Positions 4,140 to 59,102 of a stretch of 64,000 bases of DNA are shown here, in pieces. The position numbers and the translations under genes were made by a program. This DNA comes from Haliotis rufescens (Eukaryota), in NCBI RefSeq assembly GCF_023055435.1, contig NW_025963802.1, positions 16,182,001 to 16,246,000 on the forward strand. Direction: 5' to 3'. The stretch's first letter is position 1. Each line of letters begins with the position of its first letter. The notes beneath the pieces were generated by a model. It searched no databases, had not been told where the DNA came from, and saw only the letters and a program-made list of their open reading frames with translations.

Positions 4140-4297
4140 CAAGCACAATATATCTCTGCTTAGAGCAGAGTTCACTGTACAAGTTCGACTATATCATGGA
4201 GATGTGTTTATGAACATATGTTTATCAAATAGTGATGATACCAGTTCGCGAAAAGGTGAGCGTATCCTTCACCACCGGTCTCACCTGTCACAAACAC
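4140..4297 (-). mobile_element. Structured dispersed repeat (family P, subfamily 2)
   Basis: gtgatgataccag..ttcgcgaaaaggtgagcgtatc..ccaccggt..cacctgtcacaaacacat. Aligns with 10105-10257. Confidence 0.7.
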
Positions 4298-5567
4298 ATT
4301 CAAAGGCAAGTCAATTGTTCACCTTAACAAAAACCACTAGAACATATAGTACAAGTCAAAATAGAGAATTGCATCGGACATAAGTTTGGCCCCTGATGCG
4401 TTAAATTTGGAAAACACAGTCACTGAAACATTCTGCAATTGTGATAGCTACTGAATGATTTATCTTTACAAAAAAAAATGTATCAAGAAAATATACATGT
4501 TCAACACCCTTCTAAATTTACAATTTATCGCACTTTGAAAACGACTGACTAAGTAAACATTGCATTAAGTCGCATCAGCAATATCAGCATCAGCATTCTC
4601 GCTGATGCAGATCCATCCACTAAAAAAAGATATGGCCGTCACAAAGAAACACTGCATTCTATTGAGTTAAACTCCATAAAGAAAAATGAACTTTTCTGTC
4701 TGGAACGATACAATTAACAACTAAATCAGGTTTATTCGATGAAAAACATATTTATAAAAGAGCACCCAAATGGATTTCATATTTAGAGCATCGGTATAAA
4801 AATACACTAATGAATATGTATGTCAGTATCCTGTCTGACTTCTGTCAAGGCAGACTGTCGAAGATTTGTCAAAAGTTAAAACATGTTAATGCCGTCATTG
4901 ATTTCTTGTCAAGATAGTCTGCAAAGTGTGTGAAATTCAACATATTAGCTTAGATGGCTTCTGTAATGCCTGAAATATCTGCATATTCACGTCATTAGGA
5001 TGTCCTTTCTCTGCTTGTATATCTTCCCGTCAGAGGAGGATAGACCCCTGACGCCACTGATCTCGACTACAACGTTGAATACGCCAAGGGGCGCAGCCAG
5101 ATGCTAATAATGATTTAGTCATGAATACGATTCCTTTGTTGTGGTGAGGAGCACCATACATGTCTGCAAACCTGGTAAAGGGGGTGATGCATTATTCTAA
5201 TACATACATTGTATATTCTTCCATGTGAAAGGTTGTATGGAATAAAGGTTTTACTTGATCCTTGCTGTAACTTGTAATGTTGAACAGTAGGAATACATCG
5301 CTCCTTGCTGTGTCGTGCCATTCGTTGCACACCATTGATAGCGGTAACTGAACACCTTCTTTATAAGAACTGGTAGGGTTCTGCAGAAATGGGGCAACAT
5401 GTAGGATAGTGTTTGGTTTCGAAATATATGTATCCGGTGGATAGTGGATAGGAATCATATCGTTCTGGTGATACTATCCGTCCTTTCATCCATGGCTCGT
5501 GTTGCATGTCTCCTATTTAAAATAATGATATCCGTATATTTATATTTATGACAAGAAAGCGGTAAAA

Positions 5568-6017
5568 TACAAAACGTCAATGCCAGAGAATAACCAGTCT
5601 CGATTAACCACCGAGACAGATTCTATTGGGAATAAAAGCCAAAATAGCAGAATATGAATGAGTCACTGATAAATATCCCCGTGAAGATCCGGGTTGGAAT
5701 AGGTCTTCGGCAACCCATGTTTGTCGTAGGCGACTAACGGGATAGGGTGGTCAGGCTCGCTGACTTGGTTGACACATATCATCGTATCCCAATTGCGTAG
5801 ATCGATGTTCAAAATATCAATAACTGGATTGCCTGGTCCAGAATCGATTATTTACAAACCGCCGTCATATAGCCTGAATATTGCTGAGTGCGGCGTTAAA
5901 CATCAAACAAACAAACAAACAAACAAACAAACAAAAACAATCACTGAAAATCAGTAAGGAAAACAAGTGTGTGCGAACAGGTAAGCATGTCCTGCCCTAC
6001 CGGTAGCACCCGTCACC
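5568..6017 (-). mobile_element. Family P repeat interrupted by a family C SINE
   Basis: aaaacgtcaatgccagagaataaccagtctcgatta... (5568-5672) resumes after the SINE as tcactgaaaatcagt...gtaagcatgtcctgccctaccggtagcacccgtcac. Confidence 0.75.
5677..5938 (+). mobile_element. SINE-like family C (non-tRNA head cccgtgaagatccggg, CAAA tail)
   Basis: Full-length match to the copies at 51733 and 56848. Tail gaatattgctgagtgcggcgttaaac(aaac)n. Confidence 0.9.
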
Positions 6018-6335
6018 AACATAACTTGCATAAAAAAGTAATTCTTTGTTGTTGTCTGACGCCGTGCCCAATCAGGAAATCTGGACAATTACTATAGGGA
6101 ATGTACATATAAAACTGTATGGGAAATGTGTTAATGACAATGTCAGAGGAAGGCTATGACTTGACTAACGGGTTGCGCTATGGGTTGTGTGGAGTTGGTA
6201 GTCATATGATGTTTGTATTTCGAAGCATTCAATATTCATGATAATTTAGTGTACCGTTATTTCCAAAACAAACTGGAAATAAGACTAGACATGTGCAGGT
6301 GTTGAACACAACATGCTTTATAAATGCTGGAACAG

Positions 6336-6500
6336 TGAGTGAGTGAGTGGGTATGATGTTACGCCGTGTTTGGCAACGTTCAAACAATGCATGGCGGAGG
6401 TTGTGAACAGTATGCCGCTACCGATGCATCCATGTGGAAAATCGAACCGTGTCTGCGCATGATGAGCGAACACGTCAACCACTAACCTACCCCACCGCCC
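6336..6500 (-). mobile_element. SINE family A, degenerate
   Basis: (gagt)n tail, aatcgaacc B box and accacta..ctaccccaccgcccc head, all in reverse. Confidence 0.75.
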
Positions 6501-6859
6501 TATAAGAGAGTAGACACAGAGTCTGTAGGACAGATTGATGTTCAGGTGATGGGTGACAAAGCAACGTCTTCCCGACAACACCGTGATGGATGTGTTCTAC
6601 ACACTACAATATGCAGTCGTTATGCTACCCATTGGAGATTCAGCGCATACGCAGCCACTGAAACATGCATGTAGGCATTATGCAGAAAGATGCTGTTTTC
6701 TCCACCGTGGCCAGGCAAGTGCGTTCCTGTTGGTGTATCATCATTCATTCTATATTACAACACTATTGGGTGAATGTATATATGTGCATTTCTTGTTATA
6801 GGCATTGATATGCTGAAGCTGTTAGGGAGCTTGAAGACAATAATATCATGATAATAATA

Positions 6860-6932
6860 TTACAACAACAACAATGATAATAATAATAATAATAGTAGTA
6901 GTAGTAGTAGTAGTAGTAGAAAGTAGTAGTAG
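6860..6932. repeat. (CAA)/(TAA)/(TAG)n microsatellite
   Basis: Directly visible. Confidence 0.9.
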
Positions 6933-7487
6933 AGGGCGTCATGGAAAATGATAAATACATTTTTTTAGGAATAGGCCCATTTACAGGATTAGACGTATCC
7001 AGGCCAACAAACCTGATCTTGTCCTTTTTTTATCCATTTATATCATTGAATTTTCAGTCCCCTTTGACACTAATGTGATTGACAAGATTGAGGAAAAACA
7101 TGGCAAATATGCAGACATCGCTTTCGAAATGTCACGCTTGCATCCAAAGTACCAAGTTGTCCGACTCCCCATCGTTCTCGGTGCCTTAGGTTTGGTACCT
7201 CCCAATCTGTTGACTGACATTGGGGGAGTAACCGGGTTTGCTAACAGGAATACAGCCCTTCTGACAATTTGGGTAATGAAGAAGGCTGCAGTGTTGGGGA
7301 ATCTTCACTTTCTACGAAAAGTTCTGGGTGGGTTGACGGGGCAGCGCTTCCTGGGAAAAGTCCCATTCAATGTCTGGGCTGCGTGTAGAGGGGGCAAGGG
7401 CCCTGAGCTGATGATGAGCCTAACCAGTCTGACTGTGCCAGGATCACCCAAACCCTCTTTGCTGCATTTTTTATTTTAATCTGTAAA
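6933..7487 (+). mobile_element. 5'-truncated R4/Dong-like (R2-group) non-LTR retrotransposon: restriction-like endonuclease C-terminus plus 3' UTR
   Basis: Translation RRIQANKPDLVL..IYIIEFSVPFDTNVIDKIEEKHGKYADIAFEMSRL..LPIVLGALG..MKKAAVLGNLHFLRKVLG carries the PD..E, KxxKY, PIVxGALG and KAAxLG..LRKVL motifs. Flanked by TAA/TAG repeats. Confidence 0.85.
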
Positions 7488-7749
7488 TAGTAGTAAGAGC
7501 ACAGCACTTCTACTGCTGTTGCTACTGCTACAACAACAACAGCACCAACAAGTACTACTACATAAGTATAACAAGGTGATGGTAGTAATAATAAGACGAG
7601 CTTTTACATGGCGCCCTTCACTAATTTACCGTCTTTTGCAAAGAAGCATATATTTCCTGATTCTTATTTCTCTATTATGTTAATTAGTGACCGAAGTGCT
7701 AAAAAAAACCAATGTATTATATGTATATAACTATATTTTGCTACGACAA

Positions 7750-8195: not shown

Positions 8196-8197
8196 GG

Positions 8198-8265: not shown

Positions 8266-9754
8266 AGGAAATTATACAAAAGAAACAGCTCGCAAGATGA
8301 AATAAACATTACTGGCTTCTTTGTTGTGGCGGATAGACATATATTGAAACACAAATAGTTGATGTAACAGACTTTTTTAACATACATGTTTACTTACTGT
8401 CAACGATTTGAATGATCACATAGTTTAGCATAAACACAATTTGTTGACAAAACACAATAGTATTGGTCAAAACGTATCCACTAACGGTACCCACTTAATG
8501 ACATCAGTTACATTTACACGTTTGCCTTTATAACATCAATATGAATTATATGCAAATATGTACAATGCGCAGTGCTACTAATATTTAACAATTTACCAGC
8601 TATGGCACTGAGAATGTAGCGGCGAGCAATCTGATAAATACTATATGACTCAATAAATATATTTTTTTGTTAAATGGTTGTAATAAACACATCAGTGGAA
8701 ACAGAAACATGCGCATTTGATCAGAGAGTGCTTATTTGATGAATATAAACAATTGCATATCTTGTAAAATATATTTTGATGTAAGCTCCGGTATAATTAA
8801 GAGACAAACGTATCAGTTGGTTTAGAAACAAAACTATTCACAGGTAGTAGGCGAATAGAAACATCAGTCCCCATGATATCAGTGATCATATACCATACTG
8901 TTTCTAATAAATGAATACTGAACAAATTTACATTAAGATTAGGCTAAATCGCGATGATTGAAATGAATGAAAAGTGTCAGAAATATAGTTTTTAAATCAA
9001 TTTCAACTTCATCACAGATGATATGTCAAATCTGAAAATTACTCACATATAAGATTAAATATGTAAAATATCTAATAAGTTGAAAAATATTAAAACATAT
9101 CTTACGTGAAGGGCATGTATCACGCCCTTAATGTACTTCATCCACAACGACATAAAGCTGTGCATGTATTTATACATACTCTAAATCTCAAAGGACAAAT
9201 TGCATCATTGACATTTACAAAAAAAACTTCCTCCAAATGACGCCGCGATATTTGACGGTATTTCCGCATTGAGGCATCCCTTGTGATTTCATCAAAGAAC
9301 TGTCAAATGTCTTAAAGCACAACACAGTCGGCATGTGAATCCATATGTGTATACAAATGTATCTAATTTATACCTAATGTGATGCTTTGTACATGAAACA
9401 AAATGAAACCTCCTTTAGCATGTTCGCATAACCCGCGCTCTCGGGGGATGAACAAGTAGTTTCTGATAGAGCGCGGGGAAATATATTTGGACAAGGTTTC
9501 AACTTCTGACATGCAAATAAAGACATACGAGTACATGCTAATCCGTATTCGAAATGATTAAAACAATCACCCAGTTATATTTTGCTCTCAAGACGGTTTC
9601 GGTAATACTCGAAAACAAGGAACTTTGTGATAGGATAATAATGAGTTAGTCTTCTTTATTCGACTTATCCAATGACATGTAATTATCTGGTCATTGTGGG
9701 TGGTACATGCATGTCTGATGGGACATATACATGTACACAACGGCAATATAATAT

Positions 9755-9885
9755 AAAACATCAACGCCAGAAAGTAACCAGTCTCGATTATCCGTCCAAA
9801 CAGATTTCATTGGGCGTACAAGAGAAAATGAAAATGATATGAATGGGTCATTGAAAATCAGTGATGACACCAGGTGTTCGCGAAA
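9755..9885 (-). mobile_element. Family P repeat, truncated
   Basis: aaaacatcaacgccagaaagtaaccagtctcgattatcc...aaaatcagtgatgacaccaggtgttcgcgaaa. Confidence 0.75.
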
Positions 9886-10104
9886 GCAATATCATAAAGT
9901 AATTTACGACACTTTGAGGCATAGGGTTTATTTTCAAAAAATGAAATATATTTTAATGATAATATTTTTTACAAATATATGTTTTTGTTCATGCTATTCA
10001 CAGTTAGTATTTGTGATCGTATTCTACCTAACGGTTGTTATGTATGCCATAAACAAGACCAAGTCATAAATAAAAGAGACAATACCAGTAATTTTCAACA
10101 TTCA

Positions 10105-10257
10105 TAAGACATCTCTGCTAATTCTTAGTCTATTGTGCGCTTCCGACTCTATCATAAGCATGTGTTTATGAATCATTATCAGTAAGTGATGATACCAGGT
10201 GTTCGCGAACAGGTGAGCGTATCTTGTCCCACCGGTGGCACCCGTCACAAACACATA
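10105..10257 (-). mobile_element. Family P repeat, subfamily 2
   Basis: gtgatgataccaggtgttcgcgaacaggtgagcgtatcttgtcccaccggtggcacccgtcac. Confidence 0.75.
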
Positions 10258-14238: not shown

Positions 14239-15712
14239 ATATTCACTGAGACGGTCAAAGCCTACGTATTTTATATATTTATATATGTTATTCGATTATG
14301 GCATATGTTGTATTTGGGAGCATTATAATAATAATGATAATAATAATGTTGCTGAACAAAAATACACTGTTTAAAAAGGTGACAATAATATTTATATGAA
14401 ATGTAATGTGGGCGTCCATCCCTTAATTTAATATCTGCAGAAAAGGCTTTAAGTTATGAAATCAACAAATACAATATTTTCACGTACAAGTATTATGAAA
14501 TATTATCATTTTACGACCCGTGCCTGCTACAGTGGTAACGCACAGTTCCGTACTCCGGACACCGAGTAAACCGGACTACTTCAGTGTGTTACAACTAATA
14601 AACCTAATGATTCTGATTAATACGGAAACCCGTTATAAAGGCCGAAACATTACTTCCATATTGACGGGTACTTTTAGGATTGCTGAATATTTCCTGTTTC
14701 TTTAACAACAATATGATAATCTTCCATACTTTGGTTATTTTATCTCATCGTCGCAAGTGCTTTTCTTACACATCAAGGTTAAACGCAGTTTTCGGAATCA
14801 AATTAAAGAAACTGGTTCTGCTTTGTCGTTTTATAACCTGATCATTTGTTCCTATTGTGCTGAAATGAACGTTTATAGAAATAACCAATATTTTATTTTT
14901 ACACAGAAATAATCCAACTTGACACAGCCTTTGTCTTTGATCGTGTGGTAACTAACTTAATTGTTGGCAATGACGGGACTTCATTTTTCCCTGTCTCTTT
15001 CGCATCCATGATAGAACAAGTTCGTAGTCAAAACTGTACATATATGAAAATACTAAACTCTCACCTTAAATTTGCTACTTATACCAATGTTAGTAGATTG
15101 TTAACTGGGTAAATAAGTAAACAAATCTAACAATTGTCAAAATGTCTATCACACCTAAAACGAACCAGAAGCACGGATATAAGTCTGAAATATCATATTA
15201 AAGGTATTTGTTTAAAACGGAAAACTACTTACATGCAGTTTGTTTCCCCCGTACATAGCCTGCTTGAACATCGGCGAATTCTTGAACCGGCGGTTATTCC
15301 TGAAATACAACAAATCCGTTTTAGGGACAGTGACTTCTTTTTGTGAAACCAGCTGAATCCCTACGGATCTCTAAAGAATCCTTAAGCTCCTTTGATTGTT
15401 TAAATTCTCGGATATAGCTCCTGCATCTTTCCGCGCCAGTATTTACAAGCGAATCTCCCGTGATCTATTGTTTACAGAAATCAGGTGGGAAATACTATAT
15501 ATCAAGTCTACCAATGGCTGGTATTTTAGATTAAATGTAGAAACAACATGGCCTATTTTGCACTACAGAATACGCGTAGTCATTGTGGGGTTTCAAATGG
15601 ACAAGAGTGATTGTTTTTAATTAGTACCGCGATTCTACGCAAACAACACGAATACATTATTCACTCGTAAATGCTCACTATTTTGTTAAGAGGTTTTTTA
15701 ATTCTTGGGAAT

Positions 15713-15855
15713 ATAAAACGTCAACTCCAGAGAGTAACCAGTCTCGATTATCCAACGTAACAGATTCATTTGGGCGCCAAAGGCAACACAGCGATGAAGA
15801 TTATATTTTTGAAAAGGGTAAGCATAACCTGCTTTACTGGTAACACCTGCCACTC
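15713..15855 (-). mobile_element. Family P repeat, internally deleted
   Basis: aaaacgtcaactccagagagtaaccagtctcgattatcc...gaaaagggtaagcataacctgctttactggtaacacctgccac. Confidence 0.7.
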
Positions 15856-15943
15856 ACAAAATATACGTAAATAAAATATTTTTTCTGTCTGCCTGACAAC
15901 GTTCTCCTGCCGGGAATTTACCAATACGGAAATTCGGAGAAAG

Positions 15944-19780: not shown

Positions 19781-19944
19781 GGGGCGGTCGGGTAGCCTAG
19801 TGGTTAAAGCGTTCGCTCGTCATGCCGAAAACCCGGGTTCGATTCCCGACATGGGTACAATGTGTGAAGCCAATTTCTGGTGTCCCCCGCCGTGATATTG
19901 CTGGAATATTGCTAAAAGTTGCGTAAAACCATACTCACTCACTC
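19781..19944 (+). mobile_element. SINE family A (tRNA head, ~160 bp), full length with TSD
   Basis: A box tagcctagtggtt, B box ggttcgattcc, tail gcgtaaaaccata(ctca)n. TSD cttccacagaa on both sides. Confidence 0.92.
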
Positions 19945-20274: not shown

Positions 20275-20720
20275 AGGCATACGTCAATGTTCATCCATAT
20301 ATACGCCCACCCCCACTCTTGCATACGTCCATGTTCATCCACGAATACGCCCACCCTCGTTCTTGCATACGTCCATGTTCATCCACGTATACGCCCATCC
20401 CCACTCTTGCATACGTCCATGTTCATACATGTATACGCCCACCCCCACCCTTGCATACGTCCATGTTCACCCCTGTATACGCCCTTCCCCACTCTTGCAT
20501 ACATCCATGTTCACCCCTGTGTACGCCCACCCCACTGCTGCATACGTCCATGTTCATCCACGTATACGCCCACCCCACTCTTGCATTCGTCCATGTTCAC
20601 GACTGTATACGCCCTTCCCTACCCTTGCATACGTCCATGTTCACCCCTGTATACACCCTTCCATACGGACATGTCTACCCCTATATACACCCTTGTCTAC
20701 ACTATTTCACATAGTGAGGG
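20275..20720 (-). repeat. 44-bp minisatellite, C-rich orientation (~9 units)
   Basis: Reverse complement of the 24380-27210 array unit. Confidence 0.92.
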
Positions 20721-24379: not shown

Positions 24380-27210
24380 AGCAAGGGCGTATACAGGGGT
24401 GAACATAGACGTATGCAAGGGCGTATGCCTCACTATGTGAAATAGTGTTGACAAGGGTGTATACAGGGGTAGACATGGACGTATGCAAGGGTAGTGAAGG
24501 GCGTATACAGGGGTGAACATGGATGTATGCAATGGTGGGGAAGGGCTTATACAGGGGTGAATATGGACGTATGGAAGGGTGGGGAGGGGCGTTTACAGGG
24601 GTGTACATGGATGTATGGAAGGGTGGGGAAGGGCGTATACAGGGGTGAACATGGATGTATGGCAGGGCGTATACAGGGGTAGACATGGATGTATGCAAAG
24701 GTGAACATGGGCGTATGCAATGGTGGGGATGTGCGTTTACAGGGATCAATATGGACGTATGCAAGGGTGGGGAAGGGCGTATACAGGGATGAATACGGAC
24801 TTCTGCAAGGGTGGGGAAGGGCTTATACAGGGGTGAACATGGACGTATGGAAGGGTGGGGAAGGGCGTATACAAGGGTGAATATGGATGTATGCAAGGGT
24901 GGGGAAGGGCGTATACAGAGGTGAACATGGATGTATGCAAGGGTGGGGAAGGGCGTATACAGGGGTGAACATGGATGTATGGCGGGGCGTATACAGGGGT
25001 AGACATGGATGTATGCAAAGGTGAACATGGGCGTATGCAATGGTGGGGATGTGCGTTTACAGGGATGAATATGGACGTATGCAAGGGTGGGGAAGGGCGT
25101 ATACAGGGATGAATACGGATTTCTGCAAGGGTGGGGAAGGGCTTATACAGGGGTGAACATGGACGTATGGAAGGGTGGGGAAGGGCGTATACAAGGGTGA
25201 ATATGGATGTATGCAAGGGTGGGGAAGGGCGTATACAGGTGTGAACATGGATGTATGGCAGGGCGTATACAGGGGTAGACATGGATGTATGCAAAGGTGA
25301 ACATCGGCGTATGCAATGGTTGGGAAAGGGCGTTTACAGGAATGAATATGGACGTATACAAGGAAGGGGAAGGGCGTATACAGGGATGAATACGGACTTC
25401 TGCAAGGGTGGGGAAGGGCTTATACAGGGGTGAACATGGACGTATGGAAGGGTGGGGAAGGGCGTATACAAGGGTGAACATGGATGTATGCAAGGGTGGG
25501 GAAGGGCGTATACAGGTGTGAACATGGATGTATGGCAGGGCGTATACAGGGGTAGACATGGATGTATGCAAAGGTGAACATCGGCGTATGCAATGGTTGG
25601 GAAAGGGCGTATACAGGAATGAATATGGACGTATACAAGGGTGGGGAAGGGCGTATACAGGGATGAATACGGACTTCTGCAAGGGTGGGGAAGGGCTTAT
25701 ACAGGGGTTAACATGGACGTATGGAAGGGTGGGGAAGGGCGTATACAAGGGTGTACATGGACGTATGCAAGGGTGGGGAAGGGCGTATACAGGGGTGAAC
25801 AAGGATGTATGCGAGGGTGGGGAAGGGCGACTACATGGGTAGACATGGATGTATGCAAAGGTGAACATGGGCGTATGCAATGGCGAGGAAGTGCGTATAC
25901 AGGGATAAATATGGACGTATGCAAGGGTTGGGAAGGGCGTATACAAGGGTGAACATGGATGTATGGAAAGGCGTATACAGGGGTGAACATGGATGTATGC
26001 AAAGTTTGGGAAGGGCGTATACAGGGGTGAACATGGATGTATGGAAATACGTATACAGGGGTGAACATGGATGTATGCAAGGATGGGGAAGGGCGTATAC
26101 AGGGGTGAACATGGGCGTATGCAAGGATGGGGAAGGGCGTATACAGGGGTGAACAAGGATGTATGCGAGGGTGGGGAAGGGCGACTACATGGGTAGACAT
26201 GGATGTATGCAAAGGTGAACATGGGTGTATGCAATGGCGAGGAAGTGCGTATACAGGGATGAATATGGACGTATGCAAGGGTGGGGAAGGGCGTATACAA
26301 GGGTGAACATGGATGTATGGAAAGGCGTATACAGGGGTGAACATGGATGTATGCAAAGGTGGGGAAGGGCGTATACAGGGGTGAACATGGATATATGGAA
26401 ATACGTATACAGGGGTGAACGTGGATGTATGCAAGGATGGGGAAGGGCGTATACAGGGGTGAACATGGGCGTATGCAAGGGTGGGGAAGGGCGTATACAG
26501 GGATGAATATGGACGTATGCAAGGTTGGGGAAGGGCGTATACAGGTGTGAACATGGGCGTATGCAAGGGTCGGGAAGGGCGTATACAGGGATGAATATGG
26601 ACGTATGCAAGGGTGGGGAAGGGCGTATACAGGGGTGAACATGGGCGTATGCAAGGGTGGGGAAGGGCGTATACAGGTATGAATATGGACGTATGCAAGG
26701 TTGGGGAAGGGCGTATACAGAGGTGATCATGGGCGTATGGAAGGGCGACTACAGGGGTAGACATGCAAAGGTGAACATGGGCGTATGCAATGGTGGGGAA
26801 GTGCGTTTACAGGGATGAATATGGACTTCTGCAAGGATGGGGAAAGGCGTTTACGGGTGTGATCTGGATGTATGGAAAGTCGTATACAGGGGTGTACATG
26901 GATGTATGCGAGGGTGGTTAAGGGCGTATACAGGGGTGAACATGGATGTATGCAAGGGTTTGGGAAGGGCATATACAGGGATGAACAAGGATGTATGCAA
27001 GGGTGGGGAAGGGCGTATACAGGGATGAACAAGGATGTATGCAAGGGTGGGGAAGGGCGTATACAGGAATGAATATGGACGTATGCAAGGTTGGGGAAGG
27101 GCGTATACAGGAATGAATATGGACGTATGCAAGGTTGGGGAAGGGCGTATACAGGGGTGAACATGGGCGTATGCAAGGGGGGGAAAGGGCGTATACAGGG
27201 ATGAACATGG
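24380..27210 (+). repeat. G-rich 44-bp minisatellite (gggtggggaagggcgtatacaggggtgaacatggacgtatgcaa) with deletion variants and higher-order blocks
   Basis: Direct periodicity. Accounts for all ORFs at 24255-27228. Confidence 0.97.
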
Positions 27211-27841
27211 ACTATGGGATAAAATCATTTATAAAGCTTATCAAAACAAAGTTTAAAGTTAAAAATGTTAAAAAACGTCTCGTATTCCGGAAACAACAGA
27301 GACTTTATGAGCTGCGTTGTCATCACGTGACCTGACGTCATAGTAGAGTGTTGACTTGCAGACGATCACTGTTTTATGGTATGTTTGGTAGATTACGTTT
27401 GTTCGCCATGGCATCACCAGACAATTACACCGAAGCCGATGAAAACGTTGAAGATTTCGCAACACGCACGCACGCATTGTGTATCGGAGTCTGGTAGATA
27501 CATATAGCTGAGTGCGGCGTTAAACAATAAGCAAACGAACAAAACATGACCCACTGACGAAGGCTATTCACGACATGAGATCCCGTTAATCTGTCGAGGA
27601 CAATTCAGCAGAGCAATCAAAACATTTGGATGCTCTATTAAACATTCAGAAGTGAACCAACAATGCAACAATGCAATGCAACATTGTACAAATAACAATT
27701 AGTATTGCTGACATTGTCACCATCAAGTCAAACTGATACAGGCAATCCAGTTCTGGATTCTAGTAATCTAACTAACATTGCGGTACTGTTACCAATAAAT
27801 CAATACAGTAACTAACAATTCACTACAATAAGTATTGTGAC

Positions 27842-32976: not shown

Positions 32977-35900
32977 CTAGATTGTTAGTATCAGCATGTG
33001 CAACACGTCATGTCCTAGAGGTTAGTATCAGCATGTGCAACACGCCATGTCCTAGAGGTTAGTATCAGCATGTGCAACACGCCATGTCCTAGAGGTTAGT
33101 ATCAGCATATGCAACACGCCATGTCCTAGAGGTTAGTATCAGCATGTGCAACACGCCATGTCCTAGAAGTTAGTAAATGCATATGCAACACCTCATGTCT
33201 TAGAGGTTAGTATCAGCATGTGCAACACGCCATGTCCTAGATGTTAGTATTAACATGTGCAACACGCCATGTCCTAGAGATAAGTATCACTATGTGCAAC
33301 ATACCATGTCCTAGAGATAAGTATCAGTATGTGCAACAGACCATGTCCTAGAGATTAGTATCAGCATATGCAACACGCCATGTCTTAGAGGTAAGTATCA
33401 GCATGTGTAACACGCCATGTCCTAGTGATAACTATCAGCATGTGCAACAAGCCATGTCCTAGAGGGTAGTACCGGCATGTGCAAAACGCAGTGTCCTAGA
33501 AGTTAGTATCAGCATGTGCAACAAGCCATGTCCTAGAGGGTAGTACCAGCATGTGCAACATGCCATGTCCTAGAGGTTAGTATTAACATGTGCAACACGC
33601 CTGACCTAGAGGGTAGTACCAGCATGTGCAACACGCCATGTCCTAGAAGTTAGTATCAGCATGTGCAACAAGCTATGTCCTAGAGGGAAGTATCAGCATG
33701 TGCAACACGCCATGTCCTAGAGGTTAGTATCAGCATGTGCAACACGCCATGTCCTAGAGGTTAGTATCAGCATGTGCAACACGCCATGTCCTAGAGGTTA
33801 GTATCAGTATGTACAACACGCCATGTCCTAGAAGTTAGTAACTGAATATGCAACATGCCATGTCCTAGAGGTTAGTACTAGCATATGCAACACGTCATCA
33901 CCTTGAGCTTAGTGTCAGCATGTGCAACACACCATGTCCTAGAGGTTAGTATCAGCATGTGCAACAAGCAATGTCCTTGAGGTTAGTAACTGCATATGCA
34001 GCACGCCATGTCCTAGAGGTTAGTAACTGCATATGCAGCACGCCATGTCCTAGAGGTAAGTATCAGCATGTGCAACACGCCATGTCCTAGAGGTTAGCAT
34101 CATCATATGCAACACGCCATGTCCTACAGGTAAGTATCAGTATGTACAACACGCCATGTCCTTGAGGTTAGTAACTGCATATGCAGCACGCCATGTCCTA
34201 GAGGTTAGTATCAGCATGTGCAACACGCCATGTCCTAGAGATTAGTATCAGCATGTGCAACACGCCATGTCCTAGAGGTTAGTATCAGCATGTGCAACAG
34301 ACCATGTCCTAGAGATTAGTATCAGCATGTGCAACACGCCTGACCTAGAGGGTAGTACCAGCATGTGCAACACGCCATGTCCTAGAAGTTAGTATCAGCA
34401 TGTGCAACAAGCTATGTCCTAGAGGGAAGTATCAGCATGTGCAACACGCCATGTCCTAGAGGTTAGTATCAGCATGTGCAACACGCCATGTCCTAGAGGT
34501 TAGTATCAGCATGTGCAACACGCCATGTCCTAGAGGTTAGTATCAGTATGTACAACACGCCATGTCCTAGAAGTTAGTAACTGAATATGCAACATGCCAT
34601 GTCCTAGAGGTTAGTACTAGCATATGCAACACGTCATCACCTTGAGCTTAGTGTCAGCATGTGCAACACACCATGTCCTAGAGGTTAGTATCAGCATGTG
34701 CAACAAGCAATGTCCTTGAGGTTAGTAACTGCATATGCAGCACGCCATGTCCTAGAGGTTAGTAACTGCATATGCAGCACGCCATGTCCTAGAGGTAAGT
34801 ATCAGCATGTGCAACACGCCATGTCCTAGATGTTAGCATCATCATATGCAACACGCCATGTCCTACAGGTAAGTATCAGTATGTACAACACGCCATGTCC
34901 TTGAGGTTAGTAACTGCATATGCAGCACGCCATGTCCTAGAGGTAAGTATCAGCATGTGCAACACGCCATGTCCTAGAGGTTAGTATCAGCATGTGCAAC
35001 ACGCCATGTCCTAGAGGTAAGTATCAGCATGTGCAACACGCCATGTCCTAGAGGTAAGTATCAGTATGTACAACACGCCATGTCCTAGAGGTTAGTAACT
35101 GGATATGCAACACGCCATGTCCTAGAGGTTATTAACTGCATATGCAACACGCCATGTCCTTAAGCTTAGTATCCGCATGTGCAACACACTATGTCCTTGA
35201 GGTTAGTATCAGCATGTGCAACACGCAGCGTCCTAGAGCTTAGTATCTGCATGTGCAACAGACCATGTCCTAGAGATTAGTATCAGCATGTGCAGCACGC
35301 AATGTCCTTGAGGTTAGTATCGGCATGTGCAACATGCCATGTCCTAGAAGTTAGTATCAGCATATGCAACACGCCATGTCCTAGAGGTTAGTATCAACAT
35401 GTGCAACACGCCATGTCCTAGAGGTTAGTTTCAGTATGTGCAACACGCCATGTCCTAGAGGTTAGTATCAGCATGTGCAACACGCCATGTCCTAGAGGTT
35501 AGTATTAGTATGTACAACACGCCATGTCCTTGAGGTTAGTAACTGCATATGCAACACGCCATGTCCTTGAGCTTAGTATCAGCATGTGCAACACACCATG
35601 TCCTAGAGGTCAGTATCAGCATGTGCAACACACCATGTCCTAGAGGTTAGTATCAGCATGTGCAACACGCCATGTCCTAGAGGTTAGTATCAGTATGTAC
35701 AACACGCCATGTCCTAGAGGTTAGTAACAACATATGCAACACGCCATGTCCTTGAGCTTAGTATCAGCATGTGCAACACGCCATGTCCTTGAGCTTAGTA
35801 TCAGCATGTGCAACACACCATGTCCTAGAGGTTAGTATCAGCATGTGCAACACACCATGTCCTAGAGGTTAGTTTCAATATGTACAACACGCCATGTCCT

Positions 35901-37858
35901 TAAGGTTAGTACTAGCATGTGCAACACGCCATGTCCTAGAGTTAAGTATTACCATGTGCAACACACCATGTCCTTGATGGTAGTATCAGCATGTGCCACA
36001 CGCCATGTCCTAGAGGTTAGTATCAGTATGTACAACACGCAATGTCCTAGAGGTAAGTACCAGCATATGAAACACGCCATGTCCTAAAGGGTAGTACCAG
36101 CATGTGCAACATGCCATGTCCTTGAGGTTAGTATCAGCATGTGCAACACGCCATGTCCTTGGGGTAAGTATTAGCATATGCAACACGCCATGTCCTAGAG
36201 GTTAGTATCAGTATGTACAACACGCCATGTCCTAGAGGTAAGTAACTGCATATGCAACACGCCATGTCCTAGAGGTTTGTACTAGCATATGCAACACGCC
36301 ATGTCCTTGAGCTTAGTATCAGCATGTGCAACACACCATGTCCTAGAGGTTAGTATCAGCATGTGCAACACACCATGTCCCAGAGGTTTGTATCAGCATA
36401 TGCAACACGCCATGTCCTAGAGGTTAGTACTAGCATGTGGAACACGCCATGTCCTTGAGGGTAGTATCAGCATGTGCAACACGCCATTTCCTTCGGCTAA
36501 GTATTAGCATGTGCAACACGTCATGTCCTAGAGGTAAGTATAAGCATGTGCAACACGCCATGTCCTAGAGGTTAGTATCAGCATGTGCAACACGCCATGT
36601 CCTTGAGCTTAGTATCAGCATGTGCAACACACCATGTCCTAGAGGTTAGTATCAGCATGTGCAACACGCCATGTCCTAGAGGTTAGTATAAGTAGGTACA
36701 ACACGCCATGTCCTAGAGGTAAGTAACTGCATATGCAACACGCCATGTCCTAGAGGTTTGTACTTGCATATGCAACACGCCATGTCCTTGAGCTTAGTAT
36801 CAACATGTGCAACACACCATGTCCTAGAGGTTAGTATCAGCATGTGCAACACACCATGTCCTAGATGTTTGTATCAGCATATGCAACACGCCATGGCCTA
36901 GGGGTTAGTACTTGCATGTGCAACACGCCATGTCCTTGAGGTAAGTATTAGCAAGTGCAACACGTTATGTCCTAGAGGTAAGTATTAGCAAGTGCAACAC
37001 GCCATGTCCTAGAGGTTAATACTAGTATGTGGAACACGCCATGTCCTTGAGGGTAGTAGCAGCATGTGCCACACGCCATGTCCTAGAGGTTAGTATCAGT
37101 ATGTACAACACGCAATGTCCTAGAGGTAAGTACCAGCATATGAAACACGCCATGTCCTAAAGGGTAGTACCAGCATGTGCAACATGCCATGTCCTTGAGG
37201 TTAGTATCAGCATGTGCAACAAGCCATGTCCTTGGGGTAAGTATTAGCATATGCAACACGCCATGCCCTAGAGGTTAGTATCAGTATGTACAACACGCCA
37301 TGTCCTAGAGGTAAGTAACTGCATATGCAACATGCCATGTCCTAGAGGTTTGTACTAGCATATGCAACACGCCATGTCCTTGAGCTTAGTATCAGCATGT
37401 GCAACACACCATGTCCTAGAGGTTAGTTTCAGCATGTGCAACACGCCATGTCCTAGAGGTTAGTACTAGCATGTGGAACACGCCATGTCCTTGAGGGTAG
37501 TATCAGCATGTGCAACACGCCATTTCCTTCGGCTAAGTATTAGGATATGCAACACGTCATGTCCTAGAGGTAAGTATTAGCATGTGCAACACGCCATGTC
37601 CTTGAGGTAATTTTTAGCATGTGCAACACCCAATGTCCTTGGGGTAAGTATTAGCATGTGCAACACGCCATGTCCTTGAGGTAAGTATCAGCATGTGCAA
37701 CACGCCATGTCCTTGAGGTTAATATCAACATGTGCAGCACGTCATGTCCTTGAGGTAAGTATTAGCAAGTGCAACATGCCATGACTTGAGGGTAGTACCA
37801 GCATATGCAACACGCCATGTCCTAGAGGTTAGTACTAGCATATGAAACACACCATGTC
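32977..37858. repeat. 37-bp satellite (tagaggttagtatcagcatgtgcaacacgccatgtcc), ~130 copies
   Basis: Head-to-tail units with no spacers. TAG stops recur in the unit. Confidence 0.98.
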
Positions 37859-44287: not shown

Positions 44288-44492
44288 TTTTGTCTCTTTG
44301 TTGTTTAACGCCGCACTCAGTGAAATATTCCAGCTGTATGACGACGGTCTGTAAATAATAACATCTGGACCAGACAATCCAGTGATTGACATCGTGAGCA
44401 TCAATCCACGCAATTGGGATACGATGACATGCATCAAACAAGTCAGCGAGCCTGACAACCCTATCCCGTTAGTCGCCTCTTACGCCAAGCAT
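44288..44492 (-). mobile_element. SINE family C, head-truncated
   Basis: gtttaacgccgcactcag...cccgttagtcgcctcttacg. Confidence 0.88.
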
Positions 44493-44545
44493 GGAACAGA
44501 TTACGCTCACCTTTTCGCGAACACCTGGTGTCATCACTGTTTGAT
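44492..44545 (+). mobile_element. Family P core fragment (the only plus-strand copy)
   Basis: acgctcaccttttcgcgaacacctggtgtcatcactg. Confidence 0.65.
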
Positions 44546-46059
44546 CGTGATACATGATATGATCGCAGTCGTACAATGGAGACTTTGTGGAAATGGTTTT
44601 GTCGCTTTTAGGGCTGAAGACCTTTTCTAGTCCGGACCTTCATTGGGTCATGATGGAAAAAACATTCCTAGGCACCAATAGTTCTTTAATCCGGAACTTT
44701 CTATATCTGGACGATTTCACAGGACGCCGTACATTCCATATTAACGGGGTTTATTTAAAAAAAAATACATTACATTTGTAGAATCTTAAGATTCAAATGT
44801 ATTCTTTTCATTTTATACGTGCAACTTCAATCTAAAGAAACGTCTGCTAAAGAAGACATCTTATTATAATTGGGCGTTTGGTTCAAAAGAAAAAGCTGGA
44901 AATGTATGTTTAAAACGTAGTCTTTGTTAGCTAGAGGCGACTGTGTAAAATTAGGATGAAAAAACTATTGTTCCTCGGTGCCACAACCTAAACAGCGACT
45001 TGTGTTTCTATTTCACAGCCCTTGTTATTGTAATCGTTCTTCGGCTTCGTATTTCGTTTCAGGAGACGAAAGGGAAGGCGGAAGTTGGACGTGTTTTTTA
45101 TCCACCCCAGGGGGAGCTGATCAATGGAGTATACGGTTTGCGAGAGAGCCTGCGTGTGCTTTAAATTAGGGCCTCACCATCGCCAGCCTCCCTCTGTAGA
45201 GTAAACATGTTTCTATTGATACTGGGTAACGGTAGACAATGCTGAGATTGGATGAACTATTTTGAAAATGTTAAAAAGTGTGAAATTAGTCATTATCTAC
45301 GTAAATGTTAGTATTCCATTGAGTCTCGTTTCGGTCAAAAATTAAGACCCAAGTGCACTTTAACACATTCCAAATATTGATTGTTAATGTGGCTTGTCGT
45401 TTTTACCATTACACAGTTTTTATTGTCTCGTATCACAATAAGAGAATGAATACAGTAGTCAAAGACAAAGTTCACATGATTGATAGCATAATTATATTTA
45501 TTTAAGGAAATAATCCGACTTATTCAGGAATCAAAGTGTATTTCATTTCGTTGTTCGATAGTCCTACGCAGACCTGGGACCCTTGAATACTTAATCACGA
45601 ATAAGAGGTCTTGTGTATTTTCAGTTAACTGTTTGTTCAATACTAGTAATATTTACTACACTGAAAAGTCTTATCTTATAAATTAAACATCACCACTAGT
45701 AACAGAATTAACAAGTAAGGAGAACAGGGGCATACACTTAACACGCAGTATTTGTATTTCAGGTAGGACTGACCATTGATATTCTGGGTCGGGGTGGGGT
45801 GTTTGGATTGTATAAAAAAATAATTATGCTACAGAGAGTTGAAAAAAAGGATTGCTTGCAACAAAATTTACGTCAGGGATGAACGGATGAAAAGCCACAA
45901 GCATGAGTTTGGTACTGACAGACCGTGGATCGTAATCAGACGCAATTCTCAAGCTGCGGAACACATCACCACTGGTCTACCTTATGCAGTATGCAGTAGA
46001 TATATTTCCAATATGGTATCAGCTTGTCGGAAACAGAACAAGATGACTTGCCTGTCTGA

Positions 46060-46225: not shown

Positions 46226-46241
46226 CCATCAACTAAATATA

Positions 46242-46400
46242 GAACGTCAACGTCAGAGAATAATCAGTCTCGATTATCTACCAAAACAGATTCCATTTGG
46301 CGTGAAAGGCGATATAGTGATGAAAATTATATGAATGGATTAAAATCAGTGATGACACCAGGTGTTCGCGAAAGTGGTAAGCATGTCCGTGTCGCTCACT
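46242..46400 (-). mobile_element. Family P repeat
   Basis: aacgtcaacgtcagagaataatcagtctcgattatc...cagtgatgacaccaggtgttcgcgaaagtggtaagcatgtcc. Confidence 0.75.
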
Positions 46401-51440: not shown

Positions 51441-51635
51441 ATTTGTATCATATGCTTGGGTCTAACACTTTTCATTTTCAAATATAAGAAGACGTTTCCT
51501 AAAATATCTAAGACAGTCCTTCTTGACATACGAGTATGTATCCTCATCTATGCATATATTTAAAGTTGATATAAGCCCAATACATGCAATTATTGAAATG
51601 AACAAAGTCTAGTTCTCATTCATGTAAATATGGTA

Positions 51636-52100
51636 AATACGTCGACACCAGAGAATAACCAGTCTGGATTATCCAACGACAAAGATTCCATTGGGCGTAA
51701 AATGAAAACAGCCGTGACAATCTGGAACTGAGACCCGTGAAGATCCGGGGTAGAATAGGTCTTCAGAAACCCATGCTTGCCGTAAAAGGTGACTTTGCTG
51801 GTCGTAAAAGGCGACTAACCTGATCGGGTGGTCAGGCTCGCTGACTTGGTTGATGCATGTCATCGTATCCCAATTGCGTGGATTGATGCTCATGATGTTA
51901 ATCACTGGATTGTCTGGTCCAGACTCGATTATTTACAGACCGCCGTCATATAGATGGAATATTGCTGAGTGCGGCGTTTAACAACATACCAACCAACCAA
52001 CCAACCAACCAACCTGAATGGATTGCTGATAATTAGATGACGCTAGTTGTTCGCGAAAAGGGTAACTATGTCCTGCCCTACCTGTAGCATACGCCACTCA
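51636..52100 (-). mobile_element. Family P repeat interrupted by a family C SINE
   Basis: acgtcgacaccagagaataaccagtctggattatcc (51636-51720) resumes at 52015 as tgaatggattgctga..ttcgcgaaaagggtaac..cctgccctacctgtagca. Confidence 0.75.
51733..52014 (+). mobile_element. SINE family C, full length, (CCAA)n tail
   Basis: acccgtgaagatccggggtagaataggtcttc...gcggcgtttaac. Confidence 0.92.
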
Positions 52101-54095
52101 GACAATTTGATTAAACACATCTGATAACTTTCAGCCACTTCCGAAAGTTTTTGCTCAAAATCTCAATTAAACAGATTTTGTGGACCAATAAGGGCCAACA
52201 TTCTACTTCGTCCTTTGTATTGGTGTTTGAGACATAAATAAAATTGATCATCCCCGTTTACAACAAAGCATGTTGTCACAAACAGCAGGTAATAGGATGA
52301 AGGGTGTTAGCATCCTAGCAGGTTATATTGTTTCGTCAAGAGAAACATGAAGCGTTTCCTGTCTTCCGTTTACCTCCATCGTGTATACTGCTGATGCCAA
52401 AGAGGGGTGACCATAAAAATGCGAAATATTTCTTTCCCACGGGATACAAACTTTTGAAAACTGGAAATCTACTTAAAAAGAAAAGAAAAGTTTCTAAATA
52501 CGTTATCGACACCGCTAATTAATAGTCAGCCTATTCCTACTGAGTCTGCGCACTAAGCAGGCTGGCAAGTTCATCAGAGTGGATTGTGGGAAAAGCAGAG
52601 ATCCCGTTTGGGTCACTGTTTTCTGTAGTAATTAACGGGAAGTGAAGGGGCAAACAGTCGACAAGAAAATCATTCTTTATACAACTGTGGTGGTTGGAAC
52701 GTCCAGCTGTATCGTGACGACATTTGTCACTCTGTTTCGTAAATTGACAGTCACAGAAACGACTTTCCAGACAACTGATTTACATACATTCACAGACACA
52801 ATATATTCTCCGGATTTTTTTCTGATAAAAAAAGTTGATTTTACGGGTGACTGTATTGCGCTGTGAGTTGAGAACTGTAAGTCTGTTGAGGTACTCTCCT
52901 CACGCCTCGTCCGTAACTTTAGAATTCTGTGTTTTCATCTCATGCACTTGTTAAATTATATTTCTTAATAAGCGCTCCGTTCCACCTGTCATGGCGCTGA
53001 TCTGTGACGAACCGTAGCGGGACGCGTACACTGATGTAGACAAATACTAGTGGTAAGGAGAACAGCACATGCAGGTTTTACTTCACCATAATTGACGTCT
53101 CTATTGCACACGACTGTTAAGGTTCATAAAGTGCTCTTTTCCGCTTTTGCGTGGCTGTTGCCTTCATGTAGTGCTTTCCGACGACCATTAATGACAAAGC
53201 CAAATGAAGAAGGTTTAACTTGCCTCGCAGCGATACAGAGATATGGGCTCTGCTCCGTGTTGCCTTATCGCTTCATGCGGGGGAAATTAGAATTATTGCT
53301 AGCAATAGAACTATCATGGCGAAGCTGTCGTCTGTATTGGGCTTGATTTAAGAGCCAAGTTTTATGTGAATTAGGATGTTTAAAATTATATTTAGTATTT
53401 TTTTATCTGCCATTTAATGTTAGTTCTCCTGCGACGTACCCCGTTTGATAATTACATCCATTAGTTGTTGAAAAGTAAACAACGGGATGTACCTAGAACA
53501 ATATTGATATTTTTTATATTCTTTAATATATTTTTGGAGACTATAGTTTTCGATAATGTAGTAAAGACGATGTTTATCATCTGGTATTTTTTTTAATTTT
53601 GTAGTTGTATCGTTTTAAACAAATACCATAACTACCTCTTAAGCTTCGATTACTACAACGACTACACATACCAATACAACTACAACCACTACTGCTATTG
53701 CAAGTACTCACACTGATGAGACTACCGATACTGCTGTACAACAACTGCAACACTCACTACTTCCGTGACTACAACTACTGCAACAATGGTTGCCACTTAA
53801 ACTGTAACAATCACCACAACACTTCTACTTTTACTATTGCTACTACAGCAAATACTACCCCTACTACCACTGGCAGTACTACAGCAAATACTGCCCCTAC
53901 TACCACTGCTACTACAGCAACGGCATTGTTTTCACTTCATTCACAGCCCCTCTCAAGGGCGGATCCTAAAAGGAGGGTCCAAAATATCAATGTCCTTTTC
54001 TCAGTCAGTGATACTACTCCCTGGACCACCCAACTGGATCCCCCTATGGTTCTTCTTGGTCATATTTAACACCCCGACACACTTCCTAGAATTGT

Positions 54096-54324: not shown

Positions 54325-55775
54325 CTACTGAAACTACAACCACTGCAACTATCTATACCGCTCCCATTGCAACTGTCTCTACTGCTACAACTACTACTGC
54401 AACTATCTCTACTGCTACACCACAACTGCAACCATCTCTACTGATACATCACCACTGCAACTATCTATACCGCTCCCATTGCAACTGTCTCTACTGATAC
54501 ATCACCACTGCAACTATCTCTACTGATACAACTACAACTGCAACTATCTCTACTGCTACAACTACTACTGCAACCATTTCTACTGCTACAACTACTACCA
54601 CCACTGCAACTATCTCTACTACTACAACTACCACTGCAACTATTTCTATTGCTACAACCACCACTGCAACTATCTCTACTGCTACAACTACCAATGCAAC
54701 TATTTCTACTGCTACAACCACCACTGCAACTTTCTCTACTGCTACAACCACCACTGCAACTATCTCTACTGCTACAACTACTACTGCAACCATTTCTACT
54801 GCTACAACCACCACTGCAACTATCTCTACTGCTACAACCACCACTGCAACTTTCTCTACTGCTACAACCACCACTGCAACTATCTCTACTGCTACAACTA
54901 CTACTGCAACCATTTCTACTGCTACAACCACCACTGCAACTATCTCTACTGCTACAACCACCACTGCAACTTTCTCTACTGCTACAACCACCACTGCAAC
55001 TATCTCTACTGCTACAACTACTACTGCAACCATTTCTACTGCTACAACCACCACTGCAACTATCTATTGCTACACCAACTGCAACCATTTCTACTGCTAC
55101 AACTACTACCACCACTGCAACTATCTCTACTACTACAAGTACCACTGCAACTATTTCTATTGCTACAACCACCACTGCAACTATCTCTACTGCTACAACC
55201 TCTACTGCAACTATCTCTACTGCTACAAATACCACTGCAACTATCTCTACTGTAACACCATCACTGCAACTATATCTACTGCAACAGCACTACAGCAACT
55301 GTCTCTACTGTAACACCATCACTGCAACCATTTCTACTGCATAACCACCACTGCAACTATCTCTACTGCTACAACTACCACTGCAACTATCTCTACTGCT
55401 ACAACCACCACTGCAACTTTCTCTACTGCTACAACCACCACTGCAACTATCTCTACTACTACAACTACCACTGCAACTATCTCTACTGCTACAACTACCA
55501 CTGCAACTATCTCTTCTGCTACAACCATCACTGCAACTATCTCTACTGCTACAACCACTGCAACTATCTCTACTGCTACAACTACCACTGCAACTATCTC
55601 TTCTGCTACAACCACTACTGCAACTATCTCTACTGCTACAACCACCACTGCAACTATCTCTACTGCTACAACCATTACTGCAATACTGCTATAACTACCA
55701 CTGCAACTATCTCTACTGCTACAACCATCACTGCAACCATCTCTACTGCTACAACTTCCACTGCAACTATATCTT
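54325..55775. repeat. 30-bp minisatellite (actgcaactatctctactgctacaaccacc) with 120-bp higher-order repeat
   Basis: The 120-bp block beginning at 54721 recurs at 54841 and 54961. Confidence 0.95.
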
Positions 55776-56847: not shown

Positions 56848-57116
56848 ATTGTTTTGTTTGTTTGTTGTTTAACGCCGCACTCAGCAATATTCCAGCTATA
56901 TGACGGCGGTCTGTAAATAATCAAGTCTGAACCAGACAATTCAGTGATTGACATCATGAGCATCAATCCACGCAATTTGGATACGATGACATGCATCAAC
57001 CAAGTTAGCGAGCCTGACCACCCGATCCCGTTAATCGTCTCTTACGAAAAGCATAGTCGCCTTTTACAGCAAGCATGGGTTGCTGAAGACCTATTCTACC
57101 CTGGATCTTCACGGGT
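56848..57116 (-). mobile_element. SINE family C, full length
   Basis: Ends ggatcttcacggg. Probable TSD tcc(a/t)cgtgtggtt. Confidence 0.92.
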
Positions 57117-57871: not shown

Positions 57872-58011
57872 GGGGCGGTGGGGTAGTCTAGTGGTTAAAG
57901 CGTTCGCTTGTCACGCCAAAGACCCGGGTTCGATTCCCCATTTCTGGTATCCCCCGCCGTGAAATTAGTGGAATATTGCTAAAAGCGGAGTAAAACCATA
58001 CTCACTCACTC
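57872..58011 (+). mobile_element. SINE family A, internally deleted
   Basis: ggggcggtggggtagtctagtggttaaagcg...aaaccatactcactcact. Confidence 0.9.
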
Positions 58012-58041
58012 CCAATCTTTCAGAAGAACTGATTTCTTTTA

Positions 58042-58202
58042 CAGTAAACTACGGTTAAAACGAACTCAAAGGGACTGCTAATTTTAGTTCGTTATAACCG
58101 TTGTTCGTTATAAGCACATATACAGCATATATACAGCAATGGCCGGGACCAAAAAATAAATTCGTTATATCCGTCAGTGTTCGTTATAACCGTAGTTTTC
58201 TG
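58042..58202. mobile_element. MITE, same family as 21429-21573
   Basis: TA-cagtaaactacggtta...taaccgtagttttctg-TA. Confidence 0.88.
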
Positions 58203-58242
58203 TAATTAGACATGTGCCCGCCCACATAATTCTCAGTAAACA

Positions 58243-58417
58243 TAAAACGTCAACACCAAAGAATAGTCAGTCTCGATTATCTGCCGAAACAGATTATCGG
58301 GTATAAAAGGCAAAATAGAGGTGAAAATGATATGGATGGATCTCTGAAAATCAGTGAGGACACCAGGTGTTCGCGAAAAGGGTAAGCATGTCTTGCCCTA
58401 CCTGTAGCTCCCGCCAT
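58243..58417 (-). mobile_element. Family P repeat, near full length
   Basis: aaaacgtcaacaccaaagaa...caccaggtgttcgcgaaaagggtaagcatgtcttgccctacctgtagctcccgcca. Confidence 0.8.
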
Positions 58418-58866
58418 TCACCATGTGTCGTTCAAAAACAGTTAAGTTGCTTGTCCATCACAAGCCATCATCACAGTTTTAGTGGAGACAACGGGAGTCT
58501 GTCCACGGTAGTCCTAGCTGAGAGTCACGGTAAAACACCAGGTGTTCGTCCACGTCAGCAGTCACGGTGGAGGCTGTCCTTCAACAGCGGTCACGGGAAT
58601 CACGATGAAGACACCAGGCATCCTCGTGTGATTAATGACTATATGCAACACGTTATATACTTTCGATTCAGTTGCACGTGTGCTAAACCTGAGGAAGGTA
58701 TGAGGTACTTTTTATCACCATGATTGATCGGGATATAGGTGGGGTCAGATGTTATATCACTGTCACCAAGAATACAACGAAAGTTTTGCTGATGTGTCTG
58801 TAATAAATGTTTATGCAGTTCCATTACTATCCTCCTCCTCCTCTTCCTCCTACGCCTCCATATCAT

Positions 58867-59005
58867 NNNNNNNNNNNNNNNNNNNNNNNNNNNNNNNNNN
58901 NNNNNNNNNNNNNNNNNNNNNNNNNNNNNNNNNNNNNNNNNNNNNNNNNNNNNNNNNNNNNNNNNNNNNNNNNNNNNNNNNNNNNNNNNNNNNNNNNNNN
59001 NNNNN
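58867..59005. other. Assembly gap
   Basis: Run of N. Confidence 1.
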
Positions 59006-59011
59006 ATGTTC

Positions 59012-59102
59012 AAAATATCAACGCCAGTATATAAGCAGTCTTGAAAATTATATGAATGTATCAATGGAATTCAGTGATGACACCAGGTGTTCGCGAAAAG
59101 GG
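59012..59102 (-). mobile_element. Family P repeat, deleted form
   Basis: atcaacgccag...tcagtgatgacaccaggtgttcgcgaaaaggg. Confidence 0.7.

Follow-up and report, generated by a model that had tools for sequence, protein, structure and literature searches.

What is the short non-coding repeat that recurs along a 64,000-nucleotide (nt) stretch of the Haliotis rufescens genome (contig NW_025963802.1, positions 16,182,001–16,246,000; hereafter “the window”, meaning this whole stretch), and what might its RNA do? An original prediction, made from the letters of the window, had proposed a candidate cis-acting RNA or non-hammerhead ribozyme of Penelope-like elements, specifically of Naiads, i.e., Penelope-like elements with an N-terminal endonuclease. 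Overall, we found the host element to be of this known kind, and the RNA fold near its 3′ end to be real, deeply conserved, and uncatalogued in Rfam. By analogy with other Penelope-like elements, we further predict that this Naiad 3′-tail fold is a dimeric RNA that would cut itself, a prediction on which our confidence is evenly poised.

The conserved core of the repeat (hereafter “the motif”) lies downstream of Naiad reverse transcriptase (RT) genes. When the H. rufescens genome was searched with the C-terminal part of the L111 open reading frame (ORF; 150 matches, 30 loci fetched), the motif was found ≤700 nt 3′ of the Naiad RT match on the same strand at 22 of the 30 loci and on the opposite strand at 1, as expected from the proposed linkage to Naiad RT ORFs. 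Among 79 metagenome loci with long flanks, eight of which had built the profile, 73 had room for an upstream RT; in 21 of these, an RT ended ≤400 nt upstream of the motif and on its strand, and an opposite-strand RT was seen in 0 of 79. The L111 ORF reads, in order, an endonuclease tail (motif at residue 20), CxC, GPKY, DKA, and RT, and ends after the thumb; L214 from the H. rufescens genome matches residues 22–504 of this query in order. CxC, GxKF/Y, and DKA are all present in L111 and L069, and DKA also in three H. rufescens loci (L213, L214, and L221). An N-terminal GIY-YIG endonuclease, as in Naiads, was thus identified from contigs that hold only the tail of the domain, and Pfam gave RVT_1 only, below threshold.

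The repeat also behaves as Naiads do, with the motif 40–250 nt past the RT ORF, 5′ truncation, a fixed 3′ end, and partial tandems. Specifically, 3′ ends were fixed at +165 to +200 for 32 of 46 matches of one repeat family (P1) and 28 of 47 of the other (P2), with scattered 5′ ends, and same-family pairs ≤1 kb apart were on the same strand in 14 cases and on opposite strands in 0 (3 of the pairs are split halves, and not all are independent). A head-to-tail junction typical of pseudo-long terminal repeats (pseudo-LTRs) was found in L249 and L004. The two families differ in their relation to the RT. P2 loci had an RT just upstream in 15 of 30 cases, and P2 represents 5′-truncated tails of an autonomous Naiad. 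P1 loci had one in 2 of 58 cases, in both of which the linked motif belonged to a neighbouring copy, although one RT family (L226) has a P1-like tail. On its upstream side, P1 continues for ~420 nt and ends in a short motif with which nine published Naiad consensi of corals and bivalves likewise begin (PMC8557442, supplementary portion); because this upstream end is the Naiad 5′ motif, P1 is a ~600-nt, internally deleted, non-autonomous Naiad derivative. Hence the suggestion that the copies are non-autonomous pseudo-LTR derivatives applies to P1 and not to P2. Non-autonomous Naiad derivatives are mentioned for Chlamys in the same source (PMC8557442). With Repbase and Dfam outside the search, a short interspersed nuclear element (SINE) was rejected as the source, as the full P1 unit opens with the Naiad 5′ motif and not with a tRNA head, and the tRNA-like matches in the window lie elsewhere.

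This second conserved motif (GCTGGTGGA, a short spacer, then CCCCGA) opens the full P1 unit and was located at L249:7148–7180 as well as in L004, L023, L202, and L125. In tandems it lies ~180 nt after the 3′ motif, and in some families it includes a short GGAC/GTCC stem. CACC might also pair over a long distance with this 5′ motif, in a candidate helix of only 4–5 base pairs (bp).

Across the 1.33-Gb H. rufescens genome, the full pattern of the motif had 255 exact matches, against 0 for a reversed control, far more than chance would give. Family profiles matched 93 times in 160 evenly spaced 10-kb stretches (1.6 Mb), i.e., ~58 per Mb, which extrapolates to roughly 77,000 matches genome-wide, split halves included. 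Both families are old in this genome. Elsewhere in it, a 37-base tandem array derives from the P2 motif's 3′ half (G000:C1:21756336-21756992), and three same-strand motif copies lie ~2.2 kb apart (G000:C112:1263285-1267723), possibly as part of a larger tandem unit.

Next, we evaluated the fold itself on an alignment of 25 families (A1), comprising 22 metagenome representatives and 3 families from the H. rufescens genome. A pattern scan of metagenome contigs had returned 122 stretches; the representatives were picked by eye from 121 metagenome loci, with ~95 near-duplicates and 4 GC-rich chance matches excluded. On the sense strand, the 5′ part reads outer stem (P0), CGGGUG, palindrome H1, RNCAG, and the 5′ strand of stem B, and the 3′ part GCUYACYC, palindrome H2, CACCYG, the 3′ strand of stem B, hairpin P4, and the outer stem again. 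P4 folds in most families, and P0 was placed by a permissive search without a control count. Stem B is a 5-bp helix (GACAT/GTGTC in P1, GATAC/GTATC in P2) that the original prediction had overlooked. Stem B crosses the pairing that this prediction had proposed between GGGTG and CACCT (stem A), so that the fold is a pseudoknot and not a simple multiloop.

Covariation was scored by pair counts against shuffled and slid controls. Every one of the 5 pairs of stem B and of the 5 pairs of H1 showed two-sided changes, which amounted to 104 cells, compared to 26.5 in shuffled and 10–22 in slid controls; neither helix was part of the search pattern. The covariation anticipated from the window is therefore present between families, while changes among the window copies themselves are mostly neutral decay. 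Because G-U outnumber A-C oppositions 6:1 in stem B, the sequences favour sense RNA as the functional strand, as had been proposed; stem A includes a G-U pair in 20 of 23 families. Taken together, the structure of the Naiad tail fold is well supported.

Stem A varies only from G-U to G-C, and its invariance is partly imposed by the search pattern. An alternative pairing fits equally well, namely GGGUG with the YACYC stretch (stem A′), which directly abuts a 3-bp RGC/GCU stem that encloses a stem-B strand in its loop. In that small stem a purine faces U in 25 of 25 families, a feature absent from the search pattern, and the variable positions in both GGGUG partners are all C or U opposite G. 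We hypothesize that GGGUG switches between these two conserved partners, and go no further because a five-base match alone could be due to chance.

The two palindromes were analyzed in 23 families, one of the 24 entered having been lost to the search expression. The central tetramer of H1 was self-complementary in 19 (1 in 16 would be expected by chance), with at least nine different tetramers among families, and H2 was a loop-less palindrome of at least 6 nt in 17. For H1, mean energies were +0.7 kcal/mol as a hairpin and −12.7 as a duplex, versus −4.9 for shuffled duplexes; H2 folded alone in 1 of 23 families, and its duplex averaged −9.4 versus −5.4 when shuffled. A gain upon dimer co-folding in 23 of 23 families was not counted as evidence, since it had no shuffled control and ignored pseudoknots. 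Because both palindromes are loop-less, and in line with these computed energies, H1 and H2 likely pair between two copies. Specifically, both would pair with their counterparts in another copy on one and the same tandem transcript to form a strand-swapped dimer, in which each CGGGUG junction would receive the CAG–stem B–GCUYAC segment of its partner.

We then asked how widely the motif is distributed. In the supplement of PMC8557442, 11 Naiad consensi, from hydrozoan to chordate, carry it close to their 3′ end: Clytia accounts for two, bivalves account for five, and the remaining four are later entries assigned by their position, not their header, to the part of the file covering cephalopods or acorn worms and chordates. 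The available consensus file was queried with the words CGGGTG or GCTYACYC only, and the other invariant blocks accompanied these matches (PMC8557442). Tails of the Bfor, Amil, Movir-2, Plae, and Scon Naiads lack the motif in that file (PMC8557442). From hydrozoan to chordate, ~23 bases are invariant while the RT diverges to about 50%. Viral contigs gave 0 pattern matches and prokaryote genomes 8, of which 7 lacked the fold (0–3 of 5 stem-B pairs). The eighth is an intact motif on a scaffold of 407 bases listed as part of a bacterial genome (L444); it reads like the pearl-oyster Naiad consensus and is probably contamination. Several contigs carry intact motifs with no Naiad RT nearby (L092, L133, L162, L169, L174, L178, L085, L112, L115, L127, L131, and L067; L133 has a weak RT-like match on the opposite strand), and may represent further non-autonomous families or non-animal carriers. 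No Rfam family matched the motif, in the window or at the motif loci. A description of the fold was absent from the available parts of Craig et al. 2021 (PMC8557442) and from the open literature searched, including the accessible portions of PMC10085705, PMC6154101, PMC6765202, and a retrozyme preprint (10.64898/2026.07.22.740005), with Repbase, Dfam, and subscription papers outside reach.

What the fold does was approached by analogy. This part of the 3′ tail seems to serve as a ribozyme slot, because canonical Penelope-like elements keep hammerheads there and other Naiad tails carry what we take to be hammerhead- or twister-like words: presumably, GAAAC before CUGAUGA in Amil and Plae and more weakly in Bfor, i.e., the core words of a hammerhead with their order reversed, and, in Scon, a loop resembling that of twister together with a palindrome of 10 nt. 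Naiads themselves are described as lacking canonical hammerheads (PMC8557442, main parts), in agreement with our core-word and Rfam tests and with the original prediction. The hammerheads of Penelope elements lie near the 3′ end, their loops are palindromic, and cleavage requires two copies joined as a dimer; the minimal type-I form shares with the Naiad motif its near-3′-end place, a palindrome too short to fold alone, and a tandem arrangement that supplies the second copy (PMC4209133, in the sections available). The Naiad motif differs in that it lacks a CUGANGA or GAAA core, carries a pair of palindromes where the hammerhead has one, and forms a covarying pseudoknot (PMC4209133). From this shared position, we suggest that the strand-swapped dimer would cleave its own RNA, with GGGUG possibly exchanged between its two conserved partners, and that such cutting would release templates of unit length from tandem transcripts made by read-through. 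With just under even confidence, we propose that this could be a new self-cleaving ribozyme class, i.e., a two-palindrome, strand-swapped dimer with GGGUG exchange as on-switch, in the hammerhead slot of a telomerase-related clade from cnidarians to chordates.

Several observations weigh against self-cleavage. No known catalytic core was detected in the motif by Rfam and core-word tests, monomer folding z-scores were unremarkable (+0.4 to −1.5), and stems A and A′ showed no two-sided change, their invariance being partly built into the pattern. The 5′ ends of copies did not reveal a replicated single site, as +28 was used in 5 of 69 and then 0 of 40 copies; the 5′-end rate was ~2.5× higher at +18 to +28, a bin picked after inspection. 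A search of indexed sequencing runs listed no RNA run that contains the motif. Four raw RNA runs for a related family, whose reads cover the motif in both directions, showed no end pile-up, a weak test given fragmented libraries and mixed copies. In the published table, HHR_core is the label given to Naiad-1_Chem, one of the consensi with the motif (PMC8557442), and hammerhead cleavage is dispensable for in vitro insertion by Poseidon, a canonical Penelope-like element (PMC11167929, in part).

As the main alternative, the tail could act without catalysis, which we regard as possible though doubtful: the palindromes would hold two templates together, the invariant bases would bind the Naiad protein to load the RT, and a template jump would make the partial-tandem pseudo-LTR. 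The same palindrome and tandem evidence suits this explanation, as do the dispensable cleavage just mentioned and the predicted dimer formed by the Poseidon protein (PMC11167929). It would also account for the non-autonomous P1, which retains the motif and the 5′ motif without an ORF, and a duplex at which the RT drops off would suit the slight surplus of 5′ ends located just 3′ of H1. A precedent is provided by Ty1, in which a pair of palindromes (PAL1/PAL2) mediates RNA dimerisation and is required for mobility, i.e., two self-complementary segments beside a pseudoknot in a retroelement RNA; Ty1 is however an LTR element with Gag and particles and has these signals in its 5′ untranslated region (PMC6844567). 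Against a loading signal, many copies have 5′ ends inside or past the motif, lending no support to a priming site there, the 3′ end is ~100 nt beyond the motif, some Naiads do without it, and the invariance of ~23 bases alongside a strongly diverged RT is more like a catalytic core.

A monomeric pseudoknot, either ribozyme or protein site, with H1 and H2 as plain small hairpins, seems improbable. A single molecule can accommodate stem B, stem A, and P4 together, and 4 of the 23 families have no self-complementary H1 centre; yet a hairpin offers no reason for such a centre, in so many different tetramers, in the others, and H1 hairpins are unstable while H2 rarely folds alone. We consider a DNA-level element, i.e., an endonuclease site, promoter, or single-stranded DNA fold, very improbable. 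Loop-less palindromes are typical of DNA sites, and a Penelope endonuclease cuts near its own ORF–pseudo-LTR junction (PMC11167929), but here the palindromes keep their symmetry and not their sequence, G-U pairs favour sense RNA, and a crossing stem would be meaningless in double-stranded DNA.

Known ribozyme classes were also compared with the dimeric self-cleaving RNA that we favour. A hammerhead in any permutation was rejected, as CUGANGA occurred in 1 of 23 families on either strand, within the variable P4 region and without GAAA, and no Rfam match was found. In ribozymes like that of hepatitis delta virus (HDV), J4/2 with the catalytic C lies between P4 and the 3′ strand of P2, and P3/L3 carries P1.1. 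In A1, the P4-like hairpin directly follows stem B and leaves no linker for J4/2, no P3/L3 is conserved, and there was no Rfam match. HDV-like ribozymes of R2 and L1Tc do share crossing stems and a G-rich stem that bears a G-U pair close to its 5′ end, and differ in location, since the Naiad motif follows the ORF on its 3′ side and they lie at the 5′ end (PMC6765202). Twister, in any but a deeply rearranged form, was set aside because A1 has no conserved U-A-A cleavage loop, L4-type loop, or second pseudoknot, and no Rfam match. The twister P4/L4 loop contains AAGC. The two share a loose likeness of order (purine-rich strand, stem, three-base linker, stem, GC), and in twister the U-A cleavage loop L1 and loop L4 form two pseudoknots, T1 and T2 (PMC6154101). 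Twister-sister, pistol, hatchet, hairpin, and Varkud satellite (VS) ribozymes gave no family-model match with cmscan to E 5 at 15 loci; this search returned three weak unrelated matches and no ribozyme family, and permuted forms would be missed.

Within the window, the predicted repeat was recovered at its places by profile search, and family profiles gave ten copies (seven P1, three P2; Table 1). Nine lie on the minus strand, on which all had been placed, and one on the plus strand; the two predicted subfamilies correspond to the two families, the second having three copies and not two. Copies are 82–93% identical to their own family majority, none is intact, and the full invariant pattern was matched by 0 of 10; they are dead remnants of Naiad tails. 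A palindrome reported at 15834 had been quoted from the plus strand, and its central pair is a C-A mismatch on the minus strand.

Table 1 Naiad tail copies in the window and parts of the best-preserved motif (window coordinates)
Feature	Position	Strand	Remark
P2 copy, 5′-truncated 3′ end of autonomous Naiad family	4105–4413	−	Motif partly broken; 84% to family majority
P1 copy, split by SINE-like insert	5549–6064	−	
P1 5′ half with motif	5940–6064	−	H1 palindrome at 5997–6006
P1 3′ half	5549–5670	−	SINE-like insert ~5671–5939 parts it from 5′ half
P1 copy cut off within motif	9742–9885	−	Begins at H2; family profile
P2 copy	10059–10256	−	Best-preserved motif of window (one change, in CAG linker)
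Invariant CGGGUG strand	10239–10244	−	Partner CACCUG (stem A) or YACYC stretch (stem A′)
H1, 10-nt loop-less palindrome	10229–10238	−	Predicted intermolecular duplex
Stem B 5′ strand	10219–10223	−	Pseudoknot, covarying
Conserved GCUYACY(C) stretch	10211–10218	−	GCU can pair with RGC before CAG
H2, 8-nt loop-less palindrome	10202–10209	−	
Invariant CACCYG strand	10196–10201	−	
Stem B 3′ strand	10191–10195	−	
P4 hairpin, then outer stem P0 3′ strand	10168–10190	−	P4 variable in sequence
P1 copy	15705–15912	−	Deletion spans 3′ half of motif
P2 copy, 5′-truncated	44491–44618	+	Located within SINE-like copy
P1 copy truncated at stem B	46231–46388	−	Family profile
P1 copy, split	51610–52117	−	
P1 5′ half, degenerate motif	52015–52117	−	
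P1 3′ half	51610–51721	−	Past SINE-like insert at ~51722–52014
P1 copy with near-complete motif and 3′ body	58233–58446	−	
P1 fragment	59036–59102	−	Begins at H2; family profile

A segment of the P1 body that lies between ~113 and 30 nt upstream of the motif is similar to the 3′ portion of a highly abundant SINE-like repeat (window positions 5816–5910, 27845–27942, 28219–28304, 44295–44389, 51900–51986, and 56858–56950), which suggests an old exchange between the two. The window also holds tRNA-like heads just below the Rfam threshold on the plus strand (19786–19857 and 57877–57946), probably of a tRNA-derived SINE. Satellites dominated the output of a general repeat finder run on the whole window: a 37-base array with 132 copies (32976–37858), a 44-base array in two inverted blocks (24453–27216 and 20277–20658), and a 30-base array (54364–55774).

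To our knowledge, only about a dozen self-cleaving ribozyme classes have been recognized, few of them from animals. Naiads have multiplied to tens of thousands of copies while lacking a canonical hammerhead, which leaves the role of their pseudo-LTR RNA a puzzle, and a 90-nt motif with named stems is amenable to a direct bench test. If the motif cleaves, it would constitute a new ribozyme class. If it only dimerises, this would suggest that the tail RNAs of Penelope-like elements have template pairing, and not cutting, as their common task, which may explain the partial-tandem insertions of these elements.

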